This document shows positions 1,847-17,878 of a stretch of DNA of 18,870 nucleotides, in pieces; positions within the stretch are counted from its first letter, which is position 1, and each line of letters opens with the position of its first letter. A model generated the notes under the pieces. It did no database searches. It saw only the letters and a list, made by a program, of their open reading frames with translations, and was not told where the DNA came from. The stretch comes from a virus (Duplodnaviria; Heunggongvirae; Uroviricota; Caudoviricetes), in the IMG/VR virus record IMGVR_UViG_2740892232_000009; one strand, written 5' to 3'. Position numbers and translations under genes: made by a program.

Positions 1847-1847
1847 A

Positions 1848-2063
1848 TCATGAGTCTTTGATAAACTGATTTATCTTTGGATAGTTGTACCAGATAATCC
1901 CTCGCTTACTGTCTGGCTTCCCTAAAGGAGATACTCGTTTGAAGTGGAATCCTTCCACCCAACAGTTCTGGCGGTATGCTTCAATTTGTCTGGCCCCCAG
2001 ACCAGTGCGAAGCATCAGGCCGTATTCAACCATCCACTCTTCATTAAAGATTACTTGTGCCAT
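1848..2063 (-). CDS. xisR: Excisionase-like small DNA-binding protein (71 aa)
   Basis: Translation [44 protein letters not shown]... ATG at 2063 preceded by GAGGTG with 5-nt spacer. Stop lies immediately beside the int start, the usual xis-int arrangement. Confidence 0.8.
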
Positions 2064-2162
2064 CGCATCACCTCTGGCAGGCGCCAATGTTAGACTGAAA
2101 TTGACGCCCGATGTTGATTATTAATAATCAGCTATGAAGTTTTAATTTGAATACAATGCAAT

Positions 2163-2351
2163 TCACGAGGACTGAAGTCTCTCGCAATTAAAATTTATCA
2201 GTTTTACTTTCTGCTCTCTGGAAACGGCTGCTTCTTTTTTACCTGAGAGCATTTTTTCGCATTCTGATTTCGTTAGTTTAGATTTTGAATATCTTGTCCA
2301 GTTAGTAGGAGTGCCACCTTCCTTTTCAATAGTGGCGGTAATTTTATACAT
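2163..2351 (-). CDS. ydaC: Small Rac-prophage protein of unknown function (62 aa)
   Basis: ATG at 2351 directly preceded by GGAGGTG on the minus strand. Sits between xis and ralR as in Rac. Longer ORF-track start at 2423 would overlap ralR. Confidence 0.6.
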   Translation of the reverse strand: MYKITATIEKEGGTPTNWTRYSKSKLTKSECEKMLSGKKEAAVSREQKVKLINFNCERLQSS

Positions 2352-2538
2352 GAACACCTCCATTATTATTTCCAGTGGTTCGTTTATTCCATCTTTCGAG
2401 TGCTTCTTTTTCACTTCCACCATAACCGGTTCGGGATTCGCATCCGTTACACTTCGCTCGGTAATATCCTGAAATGGCTTTCACCGTTACTGATGGACAA
2501 CCACAAAATGGACATGGTTTAACATTGTCATATCTCAT
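2344..2538 (-). CDS. ralR: Restriction-alleviation protein (Lar/RalR family, 64 aa)
   Basis: Translation MRYDNVKPCPFCGCPSVTVKAISGYYRAKCNGCESRTGYGG..., with the CPFCG and CNGC zinc-ribbon-like Cys pairs. ATG at 2538. Confidence 0.85.
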   Translation of the reverse strand: MRYDNVKPCPFCGCPSVTVKAISGYYRAKCNGCESRTGYGGSEKEALERWNKRTTGNNNGGVHV

Positions 2539-2594
2539 AATTTTTCTCATAAAAAATATTTCAAGTTGGCGGTGCATTACACCGCCAGACTGAA

Positions 2595-3404
2595 TTATTC
2601 CTCTGAATTATCGATTACACTGTATTCCCCGGTTAATACAGAGGAATCTGCAGGATCGATTGTCAGTGGTTCCTTTTCATCCATTGATACTGCACGCTGG
2701 ATCTCAATTGATACGGGCAGATATTTGAACAGGCGACGAATAGCTGTTTTCTTTGCCATTTCTTCCCAGTGAGTTACCCACGGCCCGTTATTACCAGCTT
2801 TACTCTGGCTGCGCACCAGCTCAATCTGTCTGCGCGTCATAACTTCAAACTGAGTACCTCCGTCTTTCAGTCTTGCGACAGCATAGACGTGGGTAACCGG
2901 GGCATCTTCGTTTTCTCCTGGGCGGTGTATTAACTTTTCATCAAGGCCAAATTCGAAATTAAATTCGTCACCTTCACGGACAACACGGGCTGACAGGCTG
3001 GCGATTTGACCTGAACGGCGAGCCAGATCAATCATGCCGCGATAGCCAATGATTAGCTGAACGTTTTTTTTACCGCTCTTTTCGTTTTTATTACCAAAAG
3101 GCAGTAAATATGCATGACCGAGGGCGCTACCTGGCTCAAGTCCGAGCTGTGAACACTGTACGATTGCACTGACAAAACTCATAGTGTCACAGTTTCCTAA
3201 CGCCGGAACTTTACGAATTTCTGTGGTGGCGATACGGATCATACGTTCAGCCGTCATATGGCGTGGAAGAGCTGCTGCCAGTTGCTCTTTCATTGATGGC
3301 TGGTTAATAAAACTAATCACGTCGTTATTTTTAATTGCTGCTGGTGCACGGTTTCCCTGAGTTTTTTGCAGATCGGCTTTTGCGATTGGTGGTTGCTTAG
3401 TCAT
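2595..3404 (-). CDS. recT: RecT single-strand annealing protein (269 aa)
   Basis: Translation from [28 protein letters not shown]... Start ATG 3402-3404 overlaps the recE stop (3397-3399), indicating translational coupling. Confidence 0.95.
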
Positions 3405-5997
3405 TTGCATATTCCTTAGCCCAGCGGGGCAGTGATAACGTCTTAATAGCTGGCCATTCATCGGTATTGAGGCAGTCAGCCAGGGTTCGCAGATTGCGGT
3501 GATATTCCAGCTGACCTGCCAGTTTTGCTTCTTCGCCCATCATGAAAATTTCAACCGGATAACGTCCGCATTCAATAGTTGTGCTGGCAACCAGAAAAAC
3601 GAAAGTTGGCTGCACTCCAAACTGTGCTTCATAACCGTCACTGTAGAATGCATCCTGAACGTGATAGCGGTAGTCGTAATAAGCGGTTTTGAATCGTTGA
3701 ATATCCGCCGTAGTTTTCACGTCCATGATCCAGTGAAATTCAGGGATAATTTTGTCCGGACGGCACCGACACAAAATTCCTGTTTCAGGATCTTCCCAGT
3801 AAATTGATGATTCAGCGTGTCCGGCGCTTTCAACAAGCCATTGCCCCAGCGGCAAAGCCATAACGCTTTGATACATCAGTTCAATTTTCCGGCCTTCTTC
3901 CGCAGTGATAACCATTTTTCCTGTGCTTGCGCATTCCATCAGAAACGCTTTCTCTTCTTCTTTTCCGGCGTTTGTACGGCGGTTAAATTCAGGTGCTACG
4001 ATAAAGCGGTTACTGAATTCTTCCGGTTCAAGTACCCGGCAGTGGAAAGCAGTTCCTAAATCGAGCGTTTTTGTCTTTGTGGTGTCCACGGGGGCATTTT
4101 TACGCCACAAATACAGTGCCGGAGTATCAGCAATGTCATCGAGCTGAGACTTACTGACACCGGGACCTGCGTGGTAATTCTCATTCGAAATTCCGTAATA
4201 AATACCTGGCTCTATGTCTTCTACGATTACGGGATCTGCGACTTCGCCAGTTTCATCACTGCAATCGCGATGCGGATCGCTGCCAGCATTCTCATTGTGC
4301 GGATGTTCAGCGCCTTCCATTTCCTCCGGATCATTTTCCTTAGCTTCAACCTGATTCTCTTCATCGAATGTTTCCTGGTTTGTTGCGTCGCCCATCACCG
4401 CACCACAGTCAGGGCAGTTATCCCCGCCAGTCTGGCCGTAGGCATTGCAGGCTATTTCCGGTTCCTGTTGCACTACTGGCTCAGGTTGTTTCATATCCGG
4501 GCTGGTTTTTTCCGTTTCTGGCTGGTTCTGGTACACAGAATCGCGAGTCTGGATCCCCTTAACCCATTTCGGATCGTTCGGGTCGCTAATTCCGTCAACA
4601 AATTCACCACGTGATGCAGCAAGCAATTTATCGGCATCGACAGGATTTTTTGATGGAATGTTTTTCCGGGCTTCATGGAGTTCTGCCCGCAGTTCCTGAT
4701 ATTTCGCATCAACAGAATTTACCTGTGACTGAGCATCCAGCGGCTGCGTGTCCTGATGATGTTTAGTTGCGTCCGGTTCCATTGTTTCAGCCTCTCCCTG
4801 TTCATCTGCCGTTGTTCCAGATGGTTGCAGTTTTTCTTCATCATCCTGTTTTCCTTCTTCTGTTACTCGCTGCGGCATCGGGGCAGAGGAGCGACCGCAG
4901 GCAATATCCACGATTTCCGGATCAGGGTTGGCATGATCGGTTTCAGTCAGTACTTTGTTCAGATATTCAGTGACGTGCGCGGGGATGACCTCGATCCCAA
5001 TTGGTGCTTCTTTTACGGACGCAACCACGATGGCGCGGGAATAATCCAGCCCGCCAGGCATGGTGATGAATTTGTCGCGGAAAACAGAAAAGGGCGGTTT
5101 ATTTTCAGCGATAATTTCCTCAATGCGTTTAGCGTGTGCCGGATGAAGGTTATAGATGTCCAGATCCATTGAACGGGCCAGTACGCCAGTGGCTACGTCG
5201 CGCGCCAGTGACGTCAGATCGTGTACGAAACCTTCGCCGCGATCGGTGAGGTTTCCGCCGCCAGCATTAGCACCGGAAGCCGTGCGAGTGATGTGTGAAA
5301 CACGATTACCCTTCATCCACTCTTTTGTCAGCAGTCCTCGATCGGTGTAGTCAGCGTTCAGGTATGCTTCGAAAAAAGCAGTTATCAGTCCCAGGTTTGA
5401 ATTACCAGGATTAGGGAAAACTTTGTCAGTGTCACGAACCAGTTTGTGGAGTTCGCGAATTTCCAGCGGGTCGAGCAGGCTGGTTTTGTGGGAAACAGCC
5501 AGGGCAGTAACAGCCGGTAGTTCTTCAGCCCGAGCAATGTGTAATGCCTGGAGTCCGTCGCGTGAAACGTGCGTTACCGGTTTTTCGCTGCCGTGTTGAG
5601 CAAGCCAACGAATGGGCAGTTCCTGGCCAGAAATTGGGAGTAGCATATTCTCCTCAATCTCAGTCATGTCTTCGCCGTTGACGTTGGTATTGCCTTGATA
5701 GTGAGCGTTGTCTGGTGCTGCTCCCGGTTTTAGTTCCCATGTCATGGAGTCTTTGCTGAGTTGATAGCGTTCACTCCAGGTAAAATCGATCTCACCTTCA
5801 GCGGGCAGGTCATTAACGACAGGAAAATTCGTGGCAACAGCTTTAAAATAGCTGCTCAGTTTTTTACCTGACTTAACGATCAGGTAGTCCAGAGTGGCAC
5901 AGGTCGATTCAAAATCGTTGCTTGCCCACAGGACGACGTCAGGTTCACCGGATGATTTTTTCGCTTTCCGTAACAGGAAGAGTGGTTTTGTGCTCAT
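3397..5997 (-). CDS. recE: RecE exonuclease VIII (866 aa)
   Basis: 866-aa ORF with acidic low-complexity middle and a C-terminal nuclease region, directly upstream of and overlapping recT. Matches recalled Rac RecE in length and sequence. Confidence 0.95.
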
Positions 5998-6098
5998 TGT
6001 TTTTTAACCTCAACTCAGATTAAAATTCGTTTTGTTCAGTGAATGATCTTGCCGGATACACACTGTTCATAGCCTGCGCCATACGCAGGCTATTTCTT

Positions 6099-6374
6099 TC
6101 AGATTTCACCTTTTAATTTCATTGCAATTAGAGTTGCCAGAAATTCGGCTTTTTTTTCTGCGGGCAGATTCTTTCCGATATGCACCAGGCACATTTTTTT
6201 GACACCTTCATCAAGTGTTTTTACGTTGCCTGATGGACCATCGATATCAACCACAGTGAATGGGGTTTCTTTATTTTCTGTTTTAATTACGTAGCCAATG
6301 CGCTTTCCTTCCAGATTCACCTCGTGAACAATGTCATCGGTAGTTACAACAGTGGCTTCATAATTGGTAATCAT
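6099..6374 (-). CDS. racC: RacC (91 aa), function unknown
   Basis: Translation MITNYEATVVTTDDIVHEVNLEGKRIGYVIKTENKETPF... ATG at 6374 preceded by AAGGAG. Confidence 0.85.
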   Translation of the reverse strand: MITNYEATVVTTDDIVHEVNLEGKRIGYVIKTENKETPFTVVDIDGPSGNVKTLDEGVKKMCLVHIGKNLPAEKKAEFLATLIAMKLKGEI

Positions 6375-6448
6375 GTTTTTCTCCTTAATTAAGGTTGAGC
6401 GAATACCTGCCATTTCTGGCATAAATTCAGTTTCGAATAGTCAATTAA

Positions 6449-6619
6449 TTAAAGTTCATGTGCCATCTGGTCTTTTTCGGCACAAGCTTCACTGCAATAT
6501 TTTCTCGGTTCGTCTTTTGATAAAATCCCGTGCATGAAGTGAAGCATTCTTTCAATAGCTTTGCTTTCTTCAACGTCTTTTTTGCAAAGGTGGTAAGCAC
6601 ATTTTATTTTCTTAGTCAT
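6449..6619 (-). CDS. ydaE: Small Cys-rich protein (56 aa), absent from the ORF track because it is under 60 aa
   Basis: Hand translation of the minus strand gives [56 protein letters not shown]. Start ATG 6617-6619 overlaps the kilR stop (6619-6621) by one base (ATGA). Stop TAA at 6449-6451. Confidence 0.75.
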   Translation of the reverse strand: MTKKIKCAYHLCKKDVEESKAIERMLHFMHGILSKDEPRKYCSEACAEKDQMAHEL

Positions 6620-6840
6620 CACCATGACTCCGCCTTTACAGGTAAACCATCACGACCGAGGAAGACTTTAATCATGCGGTCAGTAATGCATGTTTTTGTG
6701 GTCAGGTTACGAATATATAGTTTTCGCTTTTTAATATTGTTTGCCGAGGCAATATATGTCCGGCCTTCATGAAGAACATAATCGCCAGGAGTCACACACT
6801 GACGTGGTATTTCATCAGTTCCGAAGTGATGTGCAATCAT
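6619..6840 (-). CDS. kilR: KilR cell-division inhibitor (73 aa)
   Basis: Translation [46 protein letters not shown]... ATG at 6840 with GGAG 6 nt upstream; an in-frame ATG at 6852 is an alternative. Confidence 0.85.
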
Positions 6841-7281
6841 AATTATCTCCATTTTTACAAATGAACTTTGTTGATGCGGTGCCTGGTGCCTCCAGGTGAC
6901 TGCAACCAGTTAACAATTACAGTCGGCTTTCCCACCCAAACCAATAAGGACTAACATGACTTTTAACTGTGCCACGTGCGCTTAGCCGCATTCACCGCAT
7001 CACAAAATTCACTTTAAAAAGGGCGGACATCAGCCGAACTTCAAGAAAAAAACTGATGCCGCCAGGACTACACACAGTAATGTCGTTATTTACAACCGGA
7101 GGCGCACTCCCACCATTTAAATTTAACAGACAAGACCGACTCTTTATGGATATCGGAAATGCGCCTTCGTGTTGTGCCCGGTTTTATTTCACCACCTCCG
7201 GGCTTCGGTGGTCTCGGCTATACCCCTACAGCGAGAGCTTGTGTTAACATTTCAATACCCTTACAGTTGAGAGTTATTGAT

Positions 7282-7770
7282 ATGTTGGATGTATTTACTC
7301 CATTGTTGAAACTTTTTGCTAACGAGCCACTCGAAAGACTTATGTATACGATTATCATTTTTGGTCTCACTCTCTGGCTGATACCGAAAGAGTTTACTGT
7401 CGCATTCAATGCTTATACTGAAATACCTTGGCTCTTTCAGATTATCGTTTTTGCCTTTTCTTTCGTGGTCGCCATTTCCTTCTCAAGATTGCGAGCACAT
7501 ATTCAAAAGCATTATTCATTACTACCAGAGCAACGAGTATTGCTTCGTTTATCTGAGAAAGAAATCGCTGTATTTAAAGATTTCCTTAAAACAGGAAATC
7601 TTATTATCACTTCTCCTTGCCGTAACCCGGTTATGAAAAAATTAGAACGGAAGGGCATCATTCAACATCAGAGTGATAGCGCAAACTGTTCTTATTATCT
7701 CGTCACCGAAAAATACTCCCATTTTATGAAGTTATTCTGGAACAGCAGGAGTAGACGTTTTAATCGTTAG
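7282..7770 (+). CDS. sieB: Superinfection exclusion protein B (162 aa), membrane protein
   Basis: Translation from MLDVFTPLLKLFANEPLERLMYTIIIFGLTLWLIPKEF..., with hydrophobic N-terminal segments. ATG at 7282; the longer ORF-track start at 7159 is an unsupported upstream extension. Confidence 0.85.
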   Translation: MLDVFTPLLKLFANEPLERLMYTIIIFGLTLWLIPKEFTVAFNAYTEIPWLFQIIVFAFSFVVAISFSRLRAHIQKHYSLLPEQRVLLRLSEKEIAVFKDFLKTGNLIITSPCRNPVMKKLERKGIIQHQSDSANCSYYLVTEKYSHFMKLFWNSRSRRFNR

Positions 7771-7922
7771 CTTACTGTGTGCTTCTCCAACCATCGGCGC
7801 GCACCAGTTTCGGTTTTAAATGTTTTGCTTTTGGTATACGTCATGGCAGTGAACGTTCCATCCTGGTTGGGGAACACGCCGCACACCAGGGATTCGTTGT
7901 TGCCGAGGTCGATTTTTTGCAT
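7767..7922 (-). CDS. ydaF: Small protein (51 aa), absent from the ORF track
   Basis: Hand translation gives MQKIDLGNNESLVCGVFPNQDGTFTAMTYTKSKTFKTETGARRWLEKHTVS. ATG at 7920-7922, stop TAA at 7767-7769, convergent with and overlapping the sieB stop. Confidence 0.65.
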   Translation of the reverse strand: MQKIDLGNNESLVCGVFPNQDGTFTAMTYTKSKTFKTETGARRWLEKHTVS

Positions 7923-7932
7923 TTTGCGAATC

Positions 7933-8067
7933 TCACATCTTGTTGCTACGTATAGCGACTTCTGCCTGCCAGAGATCCCAGTCGTTGCTGCGTAAAGCCT
8001 GCACAGCCTGGTTGTAAGTGATACCGCAACAATCCATCAAATACTGAACTACTTCGTAATGCACCAT
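7933..8067 (-). CDS. ydaG: Small protein (44 aa), absent from the ORF track
   Basis: Hand translation gives MVHYEVVQYLMDCCGITYNQAVQALRSNDWDLWQAEVAIRSNKM. ATG 8065-8067 preceded by GGGGAGAGATAAG on the minus strand. Confidence 0.65.
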   Translation of the reverse strand: MVHYEVVQYLMDCCGITYNQAVQALRSNDWDLWQAEVAIRSNKM

Positions 8068-8234
8068 CTTATCTCTCCCCTTAACGCCGGGTGGCGGAAC
8101 TAACTGCTGCACTGCAAAATTTGAATCCCGCCGTCATGTTCATACGCCTCGGGCTGGCTACTTAACCCCTGACCACTGCCTGGTAACTCGAAGTATTGCC
8201 CTGCGTTCTGTGGGGCGGGGTGGGTTGGTAGGTA

Positions 8235-8276
8235 TATAATGTACTTTGTGTTCATTGTTGTAAAGTACTTTAAGTA
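8235..8276 (-). promoter_or_regulatory. Leftward pL-like promoter candidate with two operator-like palindromes (O1 8240-8252 GTACTTTGTGTTC; O2 8264-8276 GTACTTTAAGTAC)
   Basis: On the minus strand: -35 TTTACA (plus 8258-8263), 17-bp spacer, -10 CATTAT (plus 8235-8240). O2 is a perfect 6+1+6 palindrome; O1 lies in the spacer. The two sites start 24 bp apart. Confidence 0.5.
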
Positions 8277-8354
8277 CATTCTGTGTGTAAAAAAATGAGA
8301 TGGGATAAAGTGAAGCACAAACCCGGAGGGGGACGCTACCGGATTTATGCTGGT

Positions 8355-8774
8355 TTAAGAGGCTTTTTGTTTTTTCTTTCGTGCTAACTCTTCGTAAATT
8401 GCATTGTACTTCTGTTTTTTCTCCTCAAGAGTTTTTAAAAGTTCATCTGTCTCACTGTCAGGGAGCTCGTCCAGAAGGTCAATGATGATTTTTTGTCTTG
8501 GATTTAACTCCTGATAGAAACGTACCTGTCCACTTTCTTCTGTATCCTCTCCCAAAAGATAGGTTGGTGTTGTTCCAATGAGTGTTGCTAATTCCCTTAA
8601 TTTCTCTCGGCGAGGAATTGTTTCGCCATTAAACCATTTGCTAACCGCTTTTGGTGTTAATTTCATTCGACGGGCAATTTCTGCCTGCCTTCCATGTTGT
8701 TCATAACCAGCGTTTTCACAGGCTAGCGCAAGCCTACTGGCGAACTCTTTACGCGCTTTATCTTCATGAACCAT
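8355..8774 (-). CDS. racR: Prophage repressor, XRE/Cro-CI-type helix-turn-helix, no peptidase domain (139 aa)
   Basis: HTH-like segment QAEIARRMKLTPKAVSKWFNGETIPRREKLRELATLIG. Occupies the cI position, divergent from ydaS. ATG at 8774. Confidence 0.75.
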   Translation of the reverse strand: MVHEDKARKEFASRLALACENAGYEQHGRQAEIARRMKLTPKAVSKWFNGETIPRREKLRELATLIGTTPTYLLGEDTEESGQVRFYQELNPRQKIIIDLLDELPDSETDELLKTLEEKKQKYNAIYEELARKKKQKAS

Positions 8775-8853
8775 AAGTTCAATGATATTCGCTCTTGAAT
8801 GTACTGTCAGTTCTGTTATAGCATGTACTCAAAGTTCACATTGTGAGGGTGAT
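8775..8853. promoter_or_regulatory. Divergent racR / ydaS control region with two operator-like sites (O3 8801-8813 GTACTGTCAGTTC; O4 8825-8837 GTACTCAAAGTTC)
   Basis: Same half-site pattern (GTACT-N3-AGTWC) and same 24-bp spacing as O1/O2. Leftward promoter candidate: -35 CTGACA (plus 8805-8810), 17 bp, -10 TATCAT (plus 8782-8787), which would start transcription at or beside the racR ATG. Confidence 0.5.
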
Positions 8854-9108
8854 ATGAACCAGAAAACACTTGAAGATGTAATCAAAACTGTTCGCGTTTC
8901 TGTTGTGGCCGACGTTTGTGGTGTCAGCCAAAGAGCAATCTACAAATGGATGGATAACGGAAAATTGCCTCGCACAGAATATACCGGCGAAACAAATTAC
9001 GCTGAAAAAATCGCTCATGCATCAAACGGATTATTTTCTGCCGATGCAATTTTAACTATTGGCAAAAATAAAACTACTACGAAAAAGCTGATGGGAGTTG
9101 ATTCATGA
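8854..9108 (+). CDS. ydaS: Cro-like HTH protein in the cro position (84 aa from the ATG at 8854)
   Basis: ATG at 8854 preceded by GAGGGTG. HTH-like segment VADVCGVSQRAIYKWMDNGKLP. The longer start at 8782 would leave no room for a promoter beside racR. Stop overlaps the ydaT start (ATGA at 9105-9108). Confidence 0.7.
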   Translation: MNQKTLEDVIKTVRVSVVADVCGVSQRAIYKWMDNGKLPRTEYTGETNYAEKIAHASNGLFSADAILTIGKNKTTTKKLMGVDS

Positions 9109-9527
9109 AAATCAAGCATGAGCACATCGAATCAGTGTTGTTAGCCCTGGCTGCTGAAAAAGGGCAGGCATGGGTAGCCAATGCCATTACTGAAGAATAT
9201 CTGCGCCAGGGGGGCGGCGAATTGCCCCTGGTACCAGGCAAGGACTGGAACAATCAGCAGAATATCTATCACCGTTGGTTGAAAGGTGAAACGAAAGCGC
9301 AAAGGGAAAAAATTCAGAAACTGATCCCTGCGGTTCTGGCAATCCTTCCGCGCGAGCTGCGTCACCGACTCTGCATCTTCGATACCCTGGAACGCCGTGC
9401 ATTACTGGCGGCGCAGGAAGCGTTAAGTACGGCAATTGATGCGCATGATGATGCAGTCCAGGCCGTTTACCGGAAAGCGCATTTCAGCGGCGGCGGGTCT
9501 TCCGACGATTCTGTCATTGTTCATTAA
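9105..9527 (+). CDS. ydaT: YdaT (140 aa), co-transcribed with ydaS
   Basis: Translation MKIKHEHIESVLLALAAEKGQAWVANAITEEYLRQGGGELPLVPGKDW... Start overlaps the ydaS stop. Confidence 0.85.
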   Translation: MKIKHEHIESVLLALAAEKGQAWVANAITEEYLRQGGGELPLVPGKDWNNQQNIYHRWLKGETKAQREKIQKLIPAVLAILPRELRHRLCIFDTLERRALLAAQEALSTAIDAHDDAVQAVYRKAHFSGGGSSDDSVIVH

Positions 9528-9539
9528 GCAAAAGTTTCC

Positions 9540-10397
9540 ATGCTGTTTGTGCTTATTCTAAGCAACCGGGCAGCATCATACGGGGCAATTATGGCCGCAT
9601 TACCATACATGCAACTGTACATAGCTGATTACCTGGCTGACACCATGCATTTGTCAGCAGAGGAGCATGGTGCGTATTTGTTGCTGATGTTCAATTACTG
9701 GCAAACAGGAAAGCCAATACCTAAAAACAGGCTGGCAAAAATTGCCCGTCTGACTAACGAGCGATGGGCTGATGTTGAACCATCCTTGCAGGAGTTTTTT
9801 TGCGATAACGGCGAGGAATGGGTGCATCTTCGGATTGAGGAAGATCTGGCATCAGTCAGGGAAAAATTAACCAAAAAATCAGCCGCAGGAAAAGCATCTG
9901 TTCAGGCCAGAAGAAGCAGAAAGGAAGCAGATGTTCAAACAAAACAAGAGAGAAATTTAACAGGTGTTCAAACAGATGTTGAAGTGGTGTTTGAACATGA
10001 TGTCAACACAAAGGCAACTAATAAAGATACAGATAAAGATCTAAAAAAAGATCCCCCCCTAAATCCCCCCCGGGGGAATCGAGGTGTCAAAAAGTTTGAC
10101 CCTCTGGATATTGCTTTGCCGAACTGGATTTCTGTCTCGCTTTGGCGTGAGTGGGTTGAATTTCGCCAGGCATTGCGTAAACCGATTCGAACGGAGCAGG
10201 GCGCTAACGGGGCGATACGGGAGCTGGAAAAATTCCGCCAGCAGGGTTTTTCACCTGAGCAGGTGATTCGACACAGCATCGCCAATGAATACCAGGGCTT
10301 GTTCGCGCCAAAAGGTGTTCGACCTGAGACGTTACTCCGACAGGTTAACACCGTCTCGTTACCGGATAGTGCGATCCCGCCAGGCTTCAGGGGGTAA
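9540..10397 (+). CDS. ydaU: YdaU-like replication-module protein (285 aa), function not established
   Basis: Long ORF directly upstream of the DnaC-like gene. Alternative start ATG at 9591 has a slightly better upstream G-run. Acidic/basic low-complexity middle (KDTDKDLKKDPPLNPPRGNRG). Confidence 0.7.
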   Translation: MLFVLILSNRAASYGAIMAALPYMQLYIADYLADTMHLSAEEHGAYLLLMFNYWQTGKPIPKNRLAKIARLTNERWADVEPSLQEFFCDNGEEWVHLRIEEDLASVREKLTKKSAAGKASVQARRSRKEADVQTKQERNLTGVQTDVEVVFEHDVNTKATNKDTDKDLKKDPPLNPPRGNRGVKKFDPLDIALPNWISVSLWREWVEFRQALRKPIRTEQGANGAIRELEKFRQQGFSPEQVIRHSIANEYQGLFAPKGVRPETLLRQVNTVSLPDSAIPPGFRG

Positions 10398-10403
10398 CTG
10401 ACC

Positions 10404-11150
10404 ATGAAAAATATTGCGGCAGGCGGCATTCTTGAACGTATCCGTAGACTGGCCCCGCCACATGTAACCGCCCCATTCAAAACGGTAGCGGAGTGGCGCG
10501 AGTGGCAACTTTCCGAAGGCCAGAAACGTTGTGAGGAGATCAACCGTCAGAATCGTCAGTTGCGGGTGGAAAAAATTCTGAATCGCTCTGGCATCCAGCC
10601 ATTGCACCGCAAATGCTCGTTTTCGAATTACCAGGTGCAGAACGAAGGGCAGCGATACGCGTTGAGTCAGGCGAAATCCATCGCTGATGAACTGATGACC
10701 GGGTGTACAAATTTTGCGTTCAGCGGAAAACCTGGTACCGGGAAGAACCACTTAGCGGCAGCTATCGGGAATCACCTGCTGAAAGACGGTCAGACAGTGA
10801 TTGTGGTTACCGTGGCTGATGTTATGAGTGCCCTGCACGCCAGCTATGACGATGGGCAGTCAGGCGAAAAATTTTTGCGGGAACTGTGCGAAGTGGATCT
10901 GCTGGTTCTTGATGAAATTGGCATTCAGCGCGAGACGAAAAACGAGCAGGTGGTACTGCACCAGATTGTTGATCGCCGGACAGCGTCGATGCGCAGCGTG
11001 GGGATGCTGACAAACCTGAACTATGAGGCCATGAAAACATTGCTCGGCGAGCGGATTATGGATCGCATGACCATGAACGGCGGGCGATGGGTGAATTTTA
11101 ACTGGGAGAGCTGGCGTCCGAATGTCGTCCAGCCAGGAATTGCGAAGTAA
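10404..11150 (+). CDS. ydaV: DnaC-like AAA+ helicase-loader / replication protein (248 aa)
   Basis: Walker [11 protein letters not shown] and Walker [10 protein letters not shown] are visible in the translation. Position matches the lambdoid P/DnaC-like gene. Confidence 0.85.
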
Positions 11151-11172
11151 TTTTTACCGGGAGAAAAATTTA

Positions 11173-11934
11173 ATGGAGACTGTTTTTGACGCACTGAAAG
11201 CAATGGGAAAAGCCACATCCATAGAACTTGCTGCGCGACTTGATATCAGTCGTGAAGAAGTGCTGAACGAACTATGGGAACTGAAAAAGGCTGGTTTTGT
11301 TGATAAAAGCGCGTACACCTGGCGTGTGGCTGATAACAACGTTCAGCAGGAACAGCCAGCGCAGGCAGAACTGCCGGAAGAAACCACCACAGCAACAGTA
11401 GCGAAAATCTCAGAGTGCGATTTAACCGCGACGATTGAACAACGCGGACCACAAACGGCTGATGAGTTGGCTACATTGTTCGGTACCACATCACGCAAAG
11501 TGGCTTCAACGCTGGCAATGGCTATCAGCAAAGGTCGTCTGATTCGCATTAATCAGAACGGTAAATTTCGTTACTGCATACCGGGTGATAATTTACCAGC
11601 AGAGCCGAAAGTTGAATCGGTAGCGGAAACCGATGGTAAAGCCTTTCCTCAGCCAGCAGGTGTTGCGTTACCAGTACAGGAAGCTGCAACACAGGAAGAT
11701 ATTAAAACAGAAACTGTGGCTGATATTGTGCAGTCGTTGCCATCGTTTACTGAAACGCGAGCGGATGACCTGGTTTTACCATCGCTGCATATGGCAAACC
11801 GCGAATTGCGTCGGGCGAAAAGTCATGTCCAGAAGTGGGAGCGAGTCTGCGCCGCGCTGCGGGAGCTGAACAAGCACCGGGATATTGTTCGACAGATTAC
11901 GGATTCTTCCCGCCGTATTGTATCGGAAAAGTGA
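11173..11934 (+). CDS. ydaW: YdaW-like protein with repeated HTH-like segments (253 aa from ATG 11173)
   Basis: Translation [43 protein letters not shown]..., with a second similar segment [36 protein letters not shown] lies 9 nt upstream of the ATG. The ORF-track start at 11122 overlaps ydaV. Confidence 0.65.
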
Positions 11935-11949
11935 TTGCCGGAGGCGCTT

Positions 11950-12279
11950 ATGGCAAAAGTATTTACACAAGAAGGGCGGGAAAAAATTAAAGGGCAGGTT
12001 GTTGAACTCGTGCGCCATAGTGGGCGCGAGACGTTACGACAACTGGAAGCTAAGACAGGTGCGACAAGATATCTGATGAACCTTCTTGCCAGAGAATTGG
12101 TTGCGAGCGGTGATGTATACAACTCTGGTTACGGGTTATTTCCCTCAGAACAGGTTCGTAAAGACTGGCAAAACGCCCGCAAAAAACTATCAAGGGCAAA
12201 GGTGAAGAAACCGGTTGTGGTTGATCCTGACCTTATCTGGTCATTACCTGACGGAGAAATCCGTCGCCTTAGTCTTTGA
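11950..12279 (+). CDS. Hypothetical protein (109 aa) with one HTH-like segment resembling those in YdaW
   Basis: ATG 11950 preceded by GGAGG (11940-11944) with 5-nt spacer. Segment ETLRQLEAKTGATRYLMNLLARELVASGDVY. No family recognised. Confidence 0.55.
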   Translation: MAKVFTQEGREKIKGQVVELVRHSGRETLRQLEAKTGATRYLMNLLARELVASGDVYNSGYGLFPSEQVRKDWQNARKKLSRAKVKKPVVVDPDLIWSLPDGEIRRLSL

Positions 12280-12314
12280 TAATAGGTTTATAATGTTGAA
12301 AAAGAGTCTAATAG

Positions 12315-12347
12315 TTGACATTGTATGAAATATGATTGTTATATAAA
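12315..12347 (+). promoter_or_regulatory. Promoter-like element upstream of the NTPase gene
   Basis: Perfect -35 hexamer TTGACA at 12315-12320, followed 18-19 bp later by an A/T-rich -10-like stretch TTATATAAA (12339-12347), about 35 bp before the ATG at 12381. Confidence 0.45.
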
Positions 12348-12380
12348 ATGATTTTTTTGGATACTGTTTAAGGTAAACAA

Positions 12381-14639
12381 ATGAAACCAGAATACTTAAG
12401 AAAAATAGAATCATTGCAACGTGAGGTTGATGATTTCCATCCAGTGCTAAGAGCGCTTCTACCACGTTTGCCGACTGTTACACATGTTGAATATAAGCAA
12501 GGACCATCAGAAAAAGGTGCTGATTTTGTCATAATTAAACGAGATGAGGCATTAGACGAGGAAATATATATTGGTGTTATTTGTAAAGTTGGAAAGATAA
12601 TTCAGTCAAATAGTGAGGTTGAACGACAAATAGAAGAGTGTCAATTATATCCACGCTTTATTTCTTCTGGCTCTAAGAACATACATTTGAATGAAATTTG
12701 GGTTATTACTAATTCATCGATCTCAAATAATGCTCAAGAAAAAATTTACTTGAAATTCAAATCTACAAATATAAAATTTATAGAGGGTGAAAAAATATGT
12801 TCTTTAATCAGTAAATATTACCCAGAGTTTTGGGATTTCGAATCCATTAATTATGAACAATACTTAACAGATACATTGCAAACCATAAGTGATACACCTG
12901 AAAGCTCTTTTTTTGGTAGTGTTGGCATAAATAACCTTATTGATAGATATGTAAGCAAGGAAGATCATAAAAAACGCAGACACAGGCCGTTAAAACTGTA
13001 TAGTGTTGTGAGAGCCGAGAGATTTATTTTTTTAGAGGGAACCGTTGGCTCTGGGAAAAGTACTTTGCTGAAACAGTTAATTAGAAAAATAAAAGAAGAA
13101 TATTCTTACGAAAAAGACTACATCCTTCCAGTATTTTGTCAATACAAGGATGTTCTAGAAAAAAAACTTAATGTTGAAAATATAATACAAAGTGTGTTAA
13201 GTAAGTACAAAATACAACATGATGGGAATATTTTATTAATTGTTGATTCGGTGGATGAAGTAAAGGAATCACTTGAGGAAAGGCAAAACAACTTCAGGGA
13301 CATTGTAGAGAAAGTATCCAGGAATGATAAAATTCGATTACTAGTTGCTTCAAGAATTATGGATTCTCTTCAGGACTATGAAGTTATCGATCAGATGTTT
13401 GCAAGATACTCGATAATACCACTTAGCACAGGTCAAATAATCGACTTTGTAGATAAAATCTGCAATGACATTAAAATAACAAATAAACTTAAAAATGGTA
13501 TAGAAAAAACACCACTATTTAAGTTCATTCCCAGGACTCCAGTGAGCGCTATTCTTCTGGCAAGAATACTCTCTGATGAGATTAAAGAATTACCATCTAC
13601 AATGACAGAACTATACTCAAAATACAGTGAGATAGTATTGGGACGATGGGATACATCTAAGGGATTATTATCGCAAACAGAATATGATGTAATAAGTAAT
13701 ATATTAGTAGAAATTGCGATATTTATGATGGATAACTCTCTAAACTGCATATCAATTTCAGAAGTGCAGGACATGTTTTTAAATTATTTGGCCAAAAGAA
13801 ACTTGAATGTTGATGAGGACAAACTTTTCAAAAGACTAATTTATCGCAGTGAAGTAACAACAGTTAATGTTAGAAGTAATACGTTCTCATTTCTACACAG
13901 ATCATTCATGGAGTATTTTTACGCTGAAGGACTTAGGAAGCGTGGCCTAATAGACATAAATGATAATATTTATGATATTTATTGGGCAAATAGTTATTTC
14001 TTCTATTTTGGTTTGTTAAGAGACAATGAATATCTTATTGATAAAATTAATGAACTTAAACCTAGTAACGATAAAACAAGATTTTTAAGGTTATTTTATA
14101 ACGGTTCTTTTTATTTGGCTTCATATCTAACTCCGTATAAAAAAATAACGAGGGGAGTCCTTTTATCATATATAGATGCAGGTAAATTATATGTTGATAT
14201 TCTCAAGGGAAATACCGACATCCCGCTGAAGGAGTTTTCACCAGTAGCTCTTCTTTGTATTTTCACAAAGTGTTTAAGTAACAATTACGCATATGATTTT
14301 TTCAAATCTGCCTTGGAAGACTTGTCAGTTCAAATTGAACAATATGAGGAAATTGGTGAACATATTGATTATGCACGTTTCTTCATAGCATCAACACTGA
14401 ATGAGCTCGGGGATAAATCCGCATTTGATAGCTTAGTGGAAAAAAATAAATTAGGTGTTTTGATTAATTTAGGGATAACTCACGTTACAGACGACTCAGG
14501 GCTACTTAGCACTACGGTTGATAAGTACCTGAAAAAATTCAATAAAAAAGTACGAAGTAACCATGATATGTCTAATTATATATCTAAGTTATATGAGGAA
14601 TCTACAGGTTCCTTACGTACAAACCTGCAAATTCAATAA
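12381..14639 (+). CDS. STAND / NACHT-type P-loop NTPase (752 aa) with N-terminal restriction-endonuclease-like (Mrr-like) region; candidate antiphage defence protein
   Basis: Walker A LEGTVGSGKST (residues 218-228, nt 13032-13064). Walker B with the NACHT acidic pair LLIVDSVDE (286-294). Sensor-1-like LLVASR (320-325). N-terminal GPSEKGADFVII ... EIYIGVICK resembles the Mrr catalytic motifs. Gene is visibly AT-rich relative to its flanks. Confidence 0.7.
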   Translation: MKPEYLRKIESLQREVDDFHPVLRALLPRLPTVTHVEYKQGPSEKGADFVIIKRDEALDEEIYIGVICKVGKIIQSNSEVERQIEECQLYPRFISSGSKNIHLNEIWVITNSSISNNAQEKIYLKFKSTNIKFIEGEKICSLISKYYPEFWDFESINYEQYLTDTLQTISDTPESSFFGSVGINNLIDRYVSKEDHKKRRHRPLKLYSVVRAERFIFLEGTVGSGKSTLLKQLIRKIKEEYSYEKDYILPVFCQYKDVLEKKLNVENIIQSVLSKYKIQHDGNILLIVDSVDEVKESLEERQNNFRDIVEKVSRNDKIRLLVASRIMDSLQDYEVIDQMFARYSIIPLSTGQIIDFVDKICNDIKITNKLKNGIEKTPLFKFIPRTPVSAILLARILSDEIKELPSTMTELYSKYSEIVLGRWDTSKGLLSQTEYDVISNILVEIAIFMMDNSLNCISISEVQDMFLNYLAKRNLNVDEDKLFKRLIYRSEVTTVNVRSNTFSFLHRSFMEYFYAEGLRKRGLIDINDNIYDIYWANSYFFYFGLLRDNEYLIDKINELKPSNDKTRFLRLFYNGSFYLASYLTPYKKITRGVLLSYIDAGKLYVDILKGNTDIPLKEFSPVALLCIFTKCLSNNYAYDFFKSALEDLSVQIEQYEEIGEHIDYARFFIASTLNELGDKSAFDSLVEKNKLGVLINLGITHVTDDSGLLSTTVDKYLKKFNKKVRSNHDMSNYISKLYEESTGSLRTNLQIQ

Positions 14640-14650
14640 TAAATAGATTG

Positions 14651-14685
14651 TCACATTGAAGGTAACGTATCGACCTTCAATGTGA
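14651..14685 (+). terminator. Perfect 13-bp inverted repeat (TCACATTGAAGGT / ACCTTCAATGTGA, 9-nt loop) 11 bp after the NTPase stop; possible terminator
   Basis: Arms at 14651-14663 and 14673-14685. The downstream tract is only moderately U-rich, so intrinsic-terminator function is uncertain. Confidence 0.4.
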
Positions 14686-15007
14686 TGATTATCCTCTTGA
14701 TAATATAGCTTAAGCTACTTTCGACTTTCTGAGACAAAGAGATTGCAGAATGTATCAATCATAGTGAAGCTATCGTAAATGTTCGCACGTCGCTCAAATC
14801 AGATAGTCATATTTGAGTGAACTGCTTACTCAAAATGCTGGTTGGGGCCTGACTTAATACATCTGAAGAAGTGTTGGTTATGTTTGGCTGTTGTGTTCCA
14901 TTGCCAAAGAAAAAATAGATAAACTATACCCAATAGTTGTATTGAATCACTGACGAGACAGCCTCATATTTATCAGGACTGGTGTGCGTCCAATACAGGA
15001 GGTTGTC

Positions 15008-15097
15008 GTGCTGGTTCTCAAATGTGCGCTGGCTATTGCTGCTGTAATAGCAATTTATTGTCTTGCTGTTGTTCTTATGGATCGCCTTTCTGATTGA
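15008..15097 (+). CDS. Candidate small hydrophobic peptide (29 aa), single predicted transmembrane helix
   Basis: AGGAGG at 14997-15002, 5-nt spacer, GTG at 15008. Translation (M)LVLKCALAIAAVIAIYCLAVVLMDRLSD, stop TGA 15095-15097. Promoter-like TTGAAT (14942-14947), 17 bp, CATATT (14965-14970) upstream. Confidence 0.4.
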   Translation: MLVLKCALAIAAVIAIYCLAVVLMDRLSD

Positions 15098-15308
15098 TTT
15101 TATATTGGCGAGGTGACGGGAGTTAAGTAGAATTGCTGCGGGTGCTTGAGGCTATCTGCCTCGGGCATGAACACCAAAGGCAGATAGAGAAAAGCCCCAG
15201 TTAACATTACGCGTCCGGCAAGACGCTTAACATTAATCTGAGGCCAATTTCATGCTTTGCACATGTAGGTTAGCCTCTTACGTGCCGAAAGGCAAGGAGA
15301 AGCAGGCT

Positions 15309-15464
15309 ATGAAGCAGCAAAAGGCGATGTTAATCGCCCTGATCGTCATCTGTTTAACCGTCATTGTGACGGCACTGGTAACGAGGAAAGACCTCTGCGA
15401 GGTACGAATCCGAACCGGGCAGACGGAGGTCGCTGTCTTCACAGCTTACGAACCTGAGGAGTAA
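15309..15464 (+). CDS. hokD: Hok-family type I toxin (51 aa)
   Basis: Translation MKQQKAMLIALIVICLTVIVTALVTRKDLCEVRIRTGQTEVAVFTAYEPEE. AGGAG at 15295-15299 upstream of ATG 15309. An in-frame upstream ATG at 15252 gives the 70-aa ORF-track version. Confidence 0.85.
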   Translation: MKQQKAMLIALIVICLTVIVTALVTRKDLCEVRIRTGQTEVAVFTAYEPEE

Positions 15465-15471
15465 GAGACCG

Positions 15472-15493
15472 GGCGAGGGAGAAATCCCTCGCC
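15472..15493 (+). other. 9-bp stem with GAAA tetraloop (GGCGAGGGA-GAAA-TCCCTCGCC), 8 bp after the hokD stop; 3' structure of the hok mRNA or weak terminator
   Basis: Perfect complementarity read directly from the sequence; no U-tract follows. Confidence 0.45.
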
Positions 15494-15930
15494 ACCTCTG
15501 ATGTATTATGCATCCTCAACGCACCCACACTTAACCAGCTTTGGCGGGTTTATTTTATCTGTAAATATTTTTATAAAAATAATGCCCACGCACAGCATAA
15601 AACAAAAAGTATTACAGATAAAAAAGGAGCGTAATGTGCAGATTTGTTGTTTTCCATATTTACTCACCTTAATATGATTAATCCTGATAGGGTTGTTATT
15701 TCAGTGGTTTTCAAATGAGATATTATGGTGATCTGGTAGATTTGCATAACATTAAAATTTAATTTGTTTAACCGCTTTTAATAATAAGCGTTGTTTTTAT
15801 CCCAGCAATCTGTTGTTTGGTTTTTATTCCATCAATGTGGGGGCTTTACACTGGAATCAGTTTATTTATACTTTATACGTCGGCCTGAACAACTGGCATC
15901 TGCTGCACTGCGCCATCGAGAGATTGACAA

Positions 15931-16530
15931 ATGGCGCATATACAACTGGTCAAACAAACCTCTTCTGGTTTACTTCTCCCGGCGACGCCGGAGAGTTGCG
16001 ATTTCCTGCATCAAATCAAAATAGGTGAGTGGATACACGCAGACTTTAAGCGTGTGCGTAACTACGCATTCCACAAGCGTTTTTTCAAACTCCTGCAACT
16101 GGGATTCGATTACTGGACTCCGGTCGGTGGGGCGATCACGCCTCGCGAACGAGAACTGCTGTCTGGTTTCGTTGATTACCTGTGCGAATCAGTTGGTCGG
16201 GAACACACGCCAGCCCTGAGTGATGCCGCAGAGCAATATCTGAATACAGTTGCGACACGCAGAACTCGGGATACGGCATTGCTAAAGTCGTTTGAGGCTT
16301 TTCGCGAGTGGGTAACCATTCAGGCTGGATTTTACACCGAACATTTTTATCCGGACGGTAGCCATGGGCGTCGGGCGAAATCCATCGCTTTTGCGAATAT
16401 GGACGAAACCGAGTTTCAGCAGGTTTATAAATCTGTTCTGAATGTGCTGTGGAACTGGATTCTGTTCCGTAAATTTTCCTCTCCGGAACAAGTCGAAAAT
16501 GTGGCCGCGCAGCTGCTGGAGTTTGCGTAA
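15931..16530 (+). CDS. nin-region protein of unknown function (199 aa), upstream of and coupled to the YbcO-like gene
   Basis: ATG 15931; stop TAA 16528-16530 overlaps the next start (TAATG). Family not confidently recognised; position corresponds to the lambdoid nin region. Confidence 0.6.
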   Translation: MAHIQLVKQTSSGLLLPATPESCDFLHQIKIGEWIHADFKRVRNYAFHKRFFKLLQLGFDYWTPVGGAITPRERELLSGFVDYLCESVGREHTPALSDAAEQYLNTVATRRTRDTALLKSFEAFREWVTIQAGFYTEHFYPDGSHGRRAKSIAFANMDETEFQQVYKSVLNVLWNWILFRKFSSPEQVENVAAQLLEFA

Positions 16531-16820
16531 TGGTGGATTTACGTAAAGCGGCGCGGGGGCAGATGTGCACCGTCAGAATTCCTGGCTACTGCAATCACGA
16601 TCCGGAAACGTCTGTGCTGGCGCATTACCGACTGGCGGGAACGTGCGGAATAGCGACAAAACCACACGATATGCAGGCGGCGATTGCCTGTAGCTCATGC
16701 CACGATCTAATCGACGGGCGGGTAAAAACCAGCGATTACACCAAAGAAGAATTACGCCTGATGCATGCAGAAGGTGTTTTTCGCACACAAGAAATCTGGA
16801 GAAAGGAGGGATATTTGTGA
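16530..16820 (+). CDS. YbcO-like Cys-rich protein (96 aa), putative metal-binding nuclease family
   Basis: Translation MVDLRKAARGQMCTVRIPGYCNHDPETSVLAHYRLAGTCGIATKPHDMQAAIACSSCHDLIDGR... closely resembles recalled DLP12 YbcO. Cys spacing C13, C21, C39, C54, C57. Confidence 0.75.
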   Translation: MVDLRKAARGQMCTVRIPGYCNHDPETSVLAHYRLAGTCGIATKPHDMQAAIACSSCHDLIDGRVKTSDYTKEELRLMHAEGVFRTQEIWRKEGYL

Positions 16821-17359
16821 TTTACCCAACGAATACAGGAAAAAGCGGAGAACACCTTCGTCTCGCCACGCTGGAAAGTGTCTGGATTCAGGGCAAACTG
16901 CGTATGTGGGGGCGCTGGTCGTATATTGGCGGTGGCAGGTCAGGAAATATGTTCAATCAGTTGTTGGCATCCAAAAAATTGACGAAAACAGCCATCAATG
17001 AAGCCCTGCGCAGAATGAAAAAAGCGGGAATAGAGAAAGCTGAGCTGGAAGCGTTTTTGAGAGAGATGATCAACGGCAAGCAAAAGAGCTGGCTGGCGCA
17101 TTGTACTGATGCAGAGGCGTTATGTATTGATCGGGTCATAAGTGAGGTGCTGGCAGAGCATCCAGGATTGATTAGCGTCCTTCGGCAACGGTATGAGGGG
17201 CGGGGGATGACCAAACGCAAAATGGCTGAATTGCTAAATGATGCACACCCAGAGTGGTGTTTTAGCACATGCGAAAAGCGAATTGCTAATTGGTTGGCCG
17301 TTGCTGAGTATGCGCTATACATTCCCATGCGAGAATCATTCGCTCAAAAAACGGCTTGA
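16817..17359 (+). CDS. Q-like late-gene antiterminator (180 aa from GTG 16817)
   Basis: GTG at 16817 overlaps the YbcO-like stop (GTGA) and is preceded by AGGAGGG with 6-nt spacer. Translation contains ESVWIQGKLRMWGRWSY. Position is last before the tRNA / lysis region. The ORF-track start at 16697 is an out-of-context extension. Confidence 0.65.
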   Translation: MIYPTNTGKSGEHLRLATLESVWIQGKLRMWGRWSYIGGGRSGNMFNQLLASKKLTKTAINEALRRMKKAGIEKAELEAFLREMINGKQKSWLAHCTDAEALCIDRVISEVLAEHPGLISVLRQRYEGRGMTKRKMAELLNDAHPEWCFSTCEKRIANWLAVAEYALYIPMRESFAQKTA

Positions 17360-17444
17360 TTTTTTACGCGTAAACTGCTTCAATTTTGCTACGCTTCGCA
17401 AAGCTGTATCGCGAGGCGAATCAAGCGCAATTAAACTTTAATAG

Positions 17445-17724: not shown

Positions 17725-17800
<76 letters not shown>

Positions 17801-17803
17801 TAT

Positions 17804-17878
<75 letters not shown>

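Follow-up and report, generated by a model that had tools for sequence, protein, structure and literature searches.

Read from its sequence, the hok locus of the window (the whole 18,870-nucleotide stretch of viral DNA that was analysed) is a complete hok/mok/sok module, extending from the hok promoter (15105-15133) and the mRNA +1 (G15140) through the fold-back inhibitory element, fbi (15515-15526). The cassette very probably works in the same way as that of plasmid R1. The basis for this within the window is the integrity of the elements, the thermodynamic prediction of both mRNA conformations, the conservation and covariation of their helices, and the identity of the core to a tested homologue. 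The module, its elements, its prophage location and the in-frame mok have all been described previously and are already known. A first-pass annotation, made from the letters of the window and its open reading frames, had placed a hokD type I toxin locus at 15140-15495. This interval omits the hok promoter (15105-15133), fbi (15515-15526) and a terminator-like hairpin (15533-15556); it stops at about the expected end of the truncated, translatable mRNA, and fbi was thereby excluded. The features of the module, in order along the window, are:

15105-15133, plus strand: hok/mok mRNA promoter, with -35 TTGGCG (15105-15110), a 17-nt spacer and -10 TAGAAT (15128-15133), predicted by a consensus scan (9/12 matches).
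15140-15151, plus strand: tac (translational activator element), GGGUGCUUGAGG, at the 5' end of the hok mRNA; predicted to pair with fbi when the RNA is full-length and with ucb once it is truncated.
15152-15187, plus strand: 5' hairpin, an exact 10-bp complement, predicted in both mRNA conformations and part of the Rfam consensus structure.
15190-15198, plus strand: ucb (upstream complementary box, or anti-SD), AAAAGCCCC; predicted to pair with the mok SD as long as the RNA is full-length and with tac after truncation.
15190-15260, minus strand: predicted Sok-like antisense RNA of ~60-71 nt, transferred from sokW of 933W and sokC of K-12, with its 3' end at 15190-15202.
15240-15244, plus strand: mok Shine-Dalgarno (SD) sequence GAGGC, 8 nt 5' of the mok ATG and invariant in 39 loci.
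15252-15464, plus strand: mok reading frame of 70 aa, in frame with hok as a 19-codon N-terminal extension, taken from the list of open reading frames and their translation.
15267-15295, minus strand: putative sok promoter, with -35 TTGCCT (complement of 15290-15295), a 17-nt spacer, -10 TAACCT (complement of 15267-15272) and a predicted +1 at G15260, read from the sequence.
15273-15277, plus strand: dcb (downstream complementary box), GCCUC, which pairs with the mok SD in the Rfam consensus and, by prediction, in the truncated RNA; invariant in 39 loci.
15294-15299, plus strand: hok Shine-Dalgarno sequence AAGGAG, read from the sequence, 9 nt 5' of the hok ATG.
15309-15464, plus strand: hok toxin gene of 51 aa, with a match to Pfam PF01848 HOK_GEF and identity to K-12 HokD (RelF).
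15472-15493, plus strand: 3' hairpin, a 9-bp stem capped by GAAA, which by homology would be the terminal stem-loop that protects the active, truncated mRNA.
15514-15526, plus strand: fbi, CCUCAACGCACCC, paired with tac in the MFE structure and lying beyond the interval first reported.
15533-15556, plus strand: weak terminator-like hairpin with a U-rich tail, predicted by folding, 3' of fbi.

The Hok reading frame had been described as intact, with 51 aa and an AGGAG ribosome-binding site, and all of this was seen. The start codon lies at 15309, not 15310. The product matched PF01848 HOK_GEF with E = 1.2e-23 (82.9 bits) over profile positions 1-42 of 42 and was 100% identical to K-12 HokD, so the toxin is unchanged relative to K-12; together with the hokD labels in RefSeq, this upholds the naming of the locus as a hok (HokD) type I toxin locus. 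Two minus-strand open reading frames that overlap hok (15278-15442 and 15439-15528) were attributed to the structured nature of the region and set aside.

An ATG at 15252, in frame with hok and 57 nt upstream of it, had been reported to give an N-terminally extended product, an arrangement set apart from that of plasmid hok/sok. The start codon, the 70-aa product and the contrast with R1 are all correct, but the arrangement is not unusual: the frame is mok, and it is annotated as such in mokC/hokC and mokW/hokW. It overlaps hok and has its own Shine-Dalgarno sequence, with GAGG 8 nt upstream of the ATG at 15252, a geometry like that of mokW and mokC. An in-frame mok was found in 66 of the 77 phage and prophage (IMG/VR) loci with an identical Hok, the other 11/77 having no in-frame mok start, and also in most chromosomal homologues and one plasmid variant. 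In K-12 mokB/hokB, mok is out of frame. The mok ATG of R1 lies 58 nt 5' of hok in the +1 frame, whereas that of the window lies 57 nt upstream in frame; Mok of R1 also has 70 aa, and the published R1 numbering (AUG at 116-118 and 174-176) agrees with the 58-nt offset (PMC9841398). The canonical R1-type sequence is 100% identical in more than 2600 plasmids. In R1, mok needs only to be translated as far as the start of hok (PMC9841398), and the mechanism should therefore not depend on the frame. The 70-aa Mok-Hok frame is still open in relatives that have no hok ATG, and its product could therefore be a functional long isoform of the toxin.

The -10 hexamer of the predicted mRNA promoter lies 6 nt 5' of G15140, which corresponds to the first position of the Rfam model and of all 39 aligned homologues; GGG(U/C)GCUU forms the mRNA 5' start in 39/39 of them. 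Rfam RF01794 matched 15140-15314 on the plus strand with 115.8 bits (gathering score 59). As the match lies on the plus strand and includes the hok SD and AUG at its 3' end, what the 'sok' model represents is the leader of the hok mRNA, and it gives no position for Sok; a Rfam 'sok' match on the hok-sense strand thus invites a wrong-strand assignment. Nothing else credible was returned by a permissive Rfam search of 14800-15800.

Two hairpins had been put forward as the fold-back structures that keep hok mRNA silent. Both stems are real. In the leader, CTATCTGCCT (15152-15161) is the exact reverse complement of AGGCAGATAG (15178-15187), and at the 3' end the 9-bp GNRA-capped stem GGCGAGGGA-GAAA-TCCCTCGCC occupies 15472-15493. 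They are, however, local and constant, and the predicted fold-back is instead the pairing of 15140-15150 with 15515-15526. The 10-bp repeat of the leader is contained in the longest inverted repeat of the whole 18.9-kb window (15141-15161 with 15178-15198, 21 nt), and the 5' hairpin has 93.3% of its cells paired across 39 loci, with 3 pairs changed on both sides. Because the window holds 27 inverted repeats of at least 9 nt, a 9-bp stem is not rare in itself, and the reality of the 3' stem rests on its conservation: 97.5% of cells are paired across 39 homologues, with A-U to G-C exchanges, and a compensatory change separates the window from 933W (15476 A>G with 15489 T>C). The stability of the terminal 3' stem-loop was found to protect the truncated R1 mRNA in a mutagenesis study (PMC9841398). 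Downstream of fbi, the terminator-like hairpin at 15533-15556 carries an A15537×G15546 mismatch at a place where the K-12 hokD stem is perfect, and it is not common to 933W. A promoter/terminator scan listed neither this post-fbi hairpin nor the sok promoter, both of which were read by hand and from homology.

When the RNA was folded, the published full-length and truncated conformations were reproduced, including a predicted fold-back pairing. In the MFE structure of the full-length RNA (15140-15528), 15140-15150 pairs with 15515-15526 with one bulged C, and GCCCC (15194-15198) pairs with the mok SD GAGGC (15240-15244). In the truncated RNA (15140-15496) the predicted MFE structure switches, 15140-15147 pairing with 15192-15198 and the mok SD pairing with GCCUC (15273-15277). 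The full-length RNA had an energy of -160.1 kcal/mol, compared with -114.7 ± 5.4 for shuffled sequences (z = -8.4); the MFE structure of this 390-nt RNA has a low ensemble frequency of 0.0002. The tac/fbi, ucb/SD, tac/ucb and SD/dcb interactions, and the mechanism that they serve, are known from plasmid R1 (PMC9841398). For the window, folding thus predicts the closed, untranslatable form, in which tac and fbi join the two ends of the mRNA.

Conservation of these pairings was assessed in hok loci from Escherichia, Shigella, Kluyvera, Citrobacter, Pseudocitrobacter, Pantoea and Photorhabdus, together with four annotated loci. In the 39-sequence alignment the full-length structure was 91.4% paired, compared with 40-50% when the partners were slid by 1-3 columns, and the truncated structure was 87.6% paired. 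The tac/fbi helix was 93% paired in the 39 loci. The ucb-mokSD, tac-ucb and mokSD-dcb helices were 94-99.6% paired across homologues, the tac/ucb helix (99.6%) being almost invariant. Position 4 of tac, which is unpaired in the tac/ucb helix, covaries with fbi, as U-A in 26 of the 39 loci and C-G in 11. Changes in tac and its complement are coupled: the Escherichia type GGGU…/…ACCC is replaced by GGGC…/…GCCC in Photorhabdus and Pantoea, and GAGG/CCUC by GAGA/UCUC. The proportion of cells paired is biased towards these structures, since it was the window sequence that they were derived from, but the double changes are independent of that. MAFFT sets the outer half of tac/fbi one column off for Photorhabdus, which has no bulged C; the resulting cells in columns 399 and 401 are unpaired in appearance only, and duplexes computed for each locus show that those pairs are kept. 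Duplex windows of 70 nt upstream and 80 nt downstream gave sprawling duplexes and uninformative z-scores, and a 12-nt tac probe was used instead. Its duplex in the window lay at stop+49 (-21.1 kcal/mol), with an equivalent place in 35 other loci, so that 36 loci, the window included, have the complement of the probe 45-56 nt beyond the stop codon.

The Sok-like antisense RNA had been expected on the minus strand around 15230-15310. Homology to sokW and sokC bears out the strand, and moves the position: the predicted RNA runs from ~15260 to 15190, and 15267-15295 would be its promoter, so that the earlier interval covers the 5' part of Sok and the promoter but leaves out the body of the RNA. 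The sokW annotation of 933W (L001 2571-2641), likewise on the strand opposite hok, corresponds to 15190-15260 of the window, and K-12 sokC overlaps mokC by 9 nt, from which the 5' end of Sok was predicted at 15260. The predicted fold comprises a 15-nt single-stranded 5' tail (15260-15246), a long hairpin and a short UUU tail. The putative -10, TAACCT, agrees with consensus at only 3/6 positions, which accounts for its absence from a simple promoter scan. The whole promoter stretch, both hexamers included, is identical to its 933W counterpart, and so is the Sok hairpin. On prophage Sp5, sokW transcribed from its own promoter neutralises HokW, and mutations in that promoter abolish the effect (PMC8621323).

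The locus varies most in a hypervariable patch of 20 nt (15245-15265), which spans mok codons 2-5, the predicted target loop and the single-stranded 5' tail of Sok. Its mean pairwise difference is 0.26-0.34, compared with at most 0.03 in the hok coding sequence, and it varies even among loci with 100%-identical toxins. We consider it unlikely, though worth stating, that the patch is under diversifying selection that gives each prophage hok/sok copy a private Sok-target specificity; if this were true, co-resident copies would be kept from cross-neutralising one another.

Alignment with characterised hok loci showed that the core regulatory elements are intact and identical to those of 933W hokW-sokW. 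The hokW/mokW/sokW locus of 933W and Sp5 (VT2-Sakai) shares ~93% DNA identity with the window over the module, lies like it on a lambdoid prophage, and has the same architecture of a 70-aa in-frame mok, a 51-aa hok and an opposite-strand sok over the mok start. The tac, ucb, Sok hairpin, mok SD, dcb, sok promoter hexamers, hok SD and fbi are identical in both. The -10 of the hok promoter is also common to both, whereas the two loci are unrelated in its -35 region and beyond fbi. Six of the 15 positions of the Sok 5' tail differ (15245-15259), as does the Hok C-terminus (…FTAYEPEE in the window, …FVDYESEK in 933W); HokW differs from the window Hok only in these few C-terminal residues. The 933W locus is near one end of the deposited record, while that of the window lies between the replication genes and the nin region. 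The hokW-sokW pair is a working type I toxin-antitoxin system, in which HokW is toxic and is counteracted by sokW from its own promoter, and HokW is 44% identical to R1 Hok (PMC8621323). Plasmid R1 hok/mok/sok (parB) has an equal element set and the same predicted full-length/truncated switch (PMC9841398), with a mok of 70 aa and a toxin of ~51-52 aa in both R1 and the window.

K-12 hokC(gef)/mokC/sokC likewise has mok in frame with a 57-nt extension, a stop codon shared by mokC and hokC, and tac and fbi sequences that are nearly those of the window; its Hok is ~82% identical to the window Hok. The hokC leader, however, is 150 nt long and has no hairpin insertion, compared with 169 nt in the window, and the K-12 hokC copy has an IS186 ~20 nt from its end. 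The subfamily of the window differs from the Rfam consensus, hokC-type and Photorhabdus loci by an insertion of ~18-20 nt in the hok leader/Sok hairpin.

K-12 Qin hokD (relF) occupies an equivalent lambdoid prophage position, upstream of the nin/Q region, and its DNA is 95.7% identical to the window over a stretch that begins at the hok SD (15295) and takes in fbi and the terminator. It has no promoter, tac, ucb, sok or mok start, all of which are present in the window copy, because relBE abuts the hok SD there. Since the homology starts only at 15295, K-12 hokD is a 5'-truncated derivative and the window copy the complete form. The window is therefore not of the K-12-type relBEF arrangement: it has the full leader, no relB or relE, a protein that is HokD and an untruncated architecture. 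That relBE genes are not adjacent, as they are to hokD in K-12 Qin, had been noted from the sequence; tblastn found none in the window, and in Qin relE does abut hokD. The only tblastn match in the window was of 28 aa (E = 0.03). This absence is expected in a Rac-like prophage, given that the junction of relBE with hokD in K-12 Qin arose as a derived truncation. In IMG/VR loci with an identical toxin, the full leader was present in 77/80 and the relE junction, the K-12-type truncation, in 2/80.

The cassette sits in the early region of a Rac-like lambdoid prophage. Positions 729-17418 are collinear (blastn, 99.1%) with a Rac-like prophage of E. coli CFSAN061771, in which the order is int-xis-ralR-recET-kilR-sieB-repressors-ydaTUV, a NACHT gene, hok and DUF1367/DUF1364/DUF1133. 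A whole-window comparison at constant offset to the best E. coli match was unusable because the two ends differ. The slot directly upstream of hok holds variable cargo. A conserved unannotated block upstream holds a small hydrophobic open reading frame that has no NCBIfam or Pfam match.

Megablast of the 461-nt region returned matches in 4727 of 5426 complete E. coli genomes, with at least 80% query coverage in 3924, so that ~72% of these complete genomes have a locus of this kind, at a median of 2 places per genome and up to 10. The locus is always annotated hokD among the E. coli matches, in thousands of RefSeq genomes. Matches were also found in 79 phage records, among them 933W and VT2-Sakai at 93.3%, where mokW, hokW and sokW are annotated.

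By analogy with R1, the promoter at 15105-15133 would make a stable mRNA from G15140. In the full-length mRNA, tac would be clamped to fbi (15515-15526) and ucb would hide the mok ribosome-binding site, barring both ribosomes and Sok. Slow 3' trimming to the hairpin at 15472-15493 would strip fbi; in R1, exonucleolytic processing of the 3' end is known to yield the truncated, active mRNA, and RNase III to cleave the Sok-mRNA duplex (PMC9841398). Thereupon tac would pair with ucb, and the mok SD would move into an SD/dcb hairpin that presents the Sok target. While it is made, the short-lived Sok (~15260 to 15190, minus strand) would pair across the mok start and the duplex would be destroyed. 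Once Sok synthesis stops, mok would be translated, the hok start would open and the 51-aa membrane toxin would be made and damage the membrane. Transcription, 3' processing, Sok action and toxicity would all follow the precedent of the work on R1 and hokW-sokW.

The most likely role would be prophage addiction and/or help with lysis on induction, as reported for Sp5. A possible reading, though one that falls short of probable, is that the locus serves the phage lifecycle or defence rather than addiction, Hok either speeding lysis, as on Sp5, or aborting infection by other phages alongside the NACHT gene. Deletion of hokW-sokW halves the release of Sp5 progeny, and HokW is made on RecA-dependent induction (PMC8621323), as an accessory function would predict. 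In a recent survey, hok was enriched in prophages, whereas its frequency close to known defence systems showed no enrichment (12% compared with 9.4% expected; bioRxiv 10.1101/2025.08.07.668861). This counts against such a reading, as does the NACHT neighbour protein, which has no confident PADLOC match. Abortive infection could nevertheless be a role. Nothing in the sequence tells an accessory role from addiction, and this alternative concerns the biological role only, leaving the molecular mechanism unchanged.

It is quite improbable that the module is a silent relic, intact in sequence but no longer killing or regulated and persisting only by riding the prophage. Chromosomal hok loci of K-12 have been reported to be inactive, so an intact sequence does not prove activity. 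The nearest relatives of the window (99.6% identity) have the hok start changed from ATG to ATA in addition to V41A, which indicates that this lineage tolerates or selects inactivation. The weak sok -10 and terminator, the loss of the in-frame mok start in 11/77 related loci and the truncation of K-12 hokD at the hok SD point the same way. Against these stand the presence of every regulatory element, identical to those of the functional hokW-sokW (PMC8621323), an unchanged toxin, and the purifying conservation of both RNA conformations across genera; in addition, no IS element or rearrangement was found near the locus. The preferred reading is accordingly a complete cassette that very probably works as in R1.

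The significance of the locus beyond its correct annotation is slight. RefSeq-style annotation marks the 51-aa hokD coding sequence only, and mok, sok and the tac/ucb/dcb/fbi RNA elements consequently go unrecorded. The window copy provides a natural full-length reference for the HokD toxin and is the ancestral, complete version of the hokD that K-12 has in truncated form, where the junction with relBE is a derived insertion of cargo. The hypervariable Sok-tail patch and the loss of the start codon in sister prophages offer small leads on cross-talk between copies and on selection against toxin expression.

The hok locus, a hok/mok/sok type I toxin-antitoxin module, is 99.6% identical to its nearest relatives, which occur in 11 E. 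coli genomes; one of these, L002, was inspected directly. The window differs from these relatives at two positions in 461 nt, both of which lie within Hok:
window 15311 (L002 16212): start codon, ATG in the window and ATA in the relatives
window 15430 (L002 16331): V41A in the relatives' Hok
The ATA-start coding sequence of the relatives retains the hokD label in PGAP annotation, and the 70-aa product of the mok frame is still open in these genomes.

The Rfam family RF01794, named 'sok antitoxin (CssrC)', matches 15140-15314 on the + strand, which is the hok-sense strand. Because its consensus ends at the 3' side in the hok SD and AUG on that strand, RF01794 models the hok mRNA leader, and reading the family name literally places Sok on the wrong strand.

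Directly 5' of the hok promoter lies an unannotated block of approximately 275 nt (14866-15139, + strand) that is approximately 92% conserved in 1769 E. coli genomes; the Stx2 phage 933W has no matching block. The block contains:
14997-15002, + strand: AGGAGG, upstream of a small ORF
15008-15097, + strand: strongly hydrophobic 29-aa ORF with a GTG start, reading LVLKCALAIAAVIAIYCLAVVLMDRLSD after the start codon
Substitutions in this ORF are mostly synonymous or conservative, with the exception of a single genome, CH4793, in which 2 nt are deleted and the SD is degraded. Searches of Pfam and NCBIfam with the ORF returned zero matches.

The slot adjoining hok on its upstream side carries cargo that varies among lambdoid prophages (the window and loci L059, L060, L061 and L003). 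In the window it holds:
12381-14639, + strand: NACHT protein, 752 aa, carrying an NCH1 domain and matching Mrr_cat weakly at its N terminus
This protein is rare (12 of 5426 genomes) and gave no confident match in PADLOC. Other cargo comprises DUF5677 (strain 55989), an AIPR family protein and a large hypothetical protein, and the slot is occupied by relBE in the K-12 Qin prophage.

On the downstream side, homology between 933W and the window stops directly 3' of fbi, the 3' fold-back element, which therefore marks the end of the conserved cassette. Beyond fbi, the stem of a terminator-like hairpin (15533-15556, + strand) is interrupted by an A15537×G15546 mismatch and capped by a UUUG loop, whereas the equivalent hairpin of K-12 hokD has a perfect stem and a UUCG loop.

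Two further features were located elsewhere in the window:
2167-2345, + strand: full-length RalA antitoxin RNA (Rfam RF02694, 220 bits)
17725-17878, + strand: tRNA-Thr(TGT) and tRNA-Gly(TCC), within segment 17419-18640
RalA is the antitoxin RNA of the RalR/RalA type I pair, and its presence in addition to hok/sok gives the prophage two unrelated type I toxin-antitoxin systems. The otherwise 99.1% identical prophage of E. coli CFSAN061771 lacks segment 17419-18640, with tolA-like fragments in its place, and also differs from the window's first 728 nt.

The most variable stretch of the hok locus is 15245-15265 (both strands), which overlaps the 5' single-stranded tail of the predicted Sok, the loop predicted to be its target, and codons 2-5 of mok. 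Measured in two sets (9 close loci, and 63 distinct IMG/VR loci with 100% identical Hok), mean pairwise difference was 0.26-0.34 here compared with at most 0.03 in the hok coding sequence. Variants of mok codons 2-5 include LCTC, LYTR, LDTC, NGKS and SHKC, among others. This variability could reflect neutral drift, or Sok specificity diversifying between co-resident copies.
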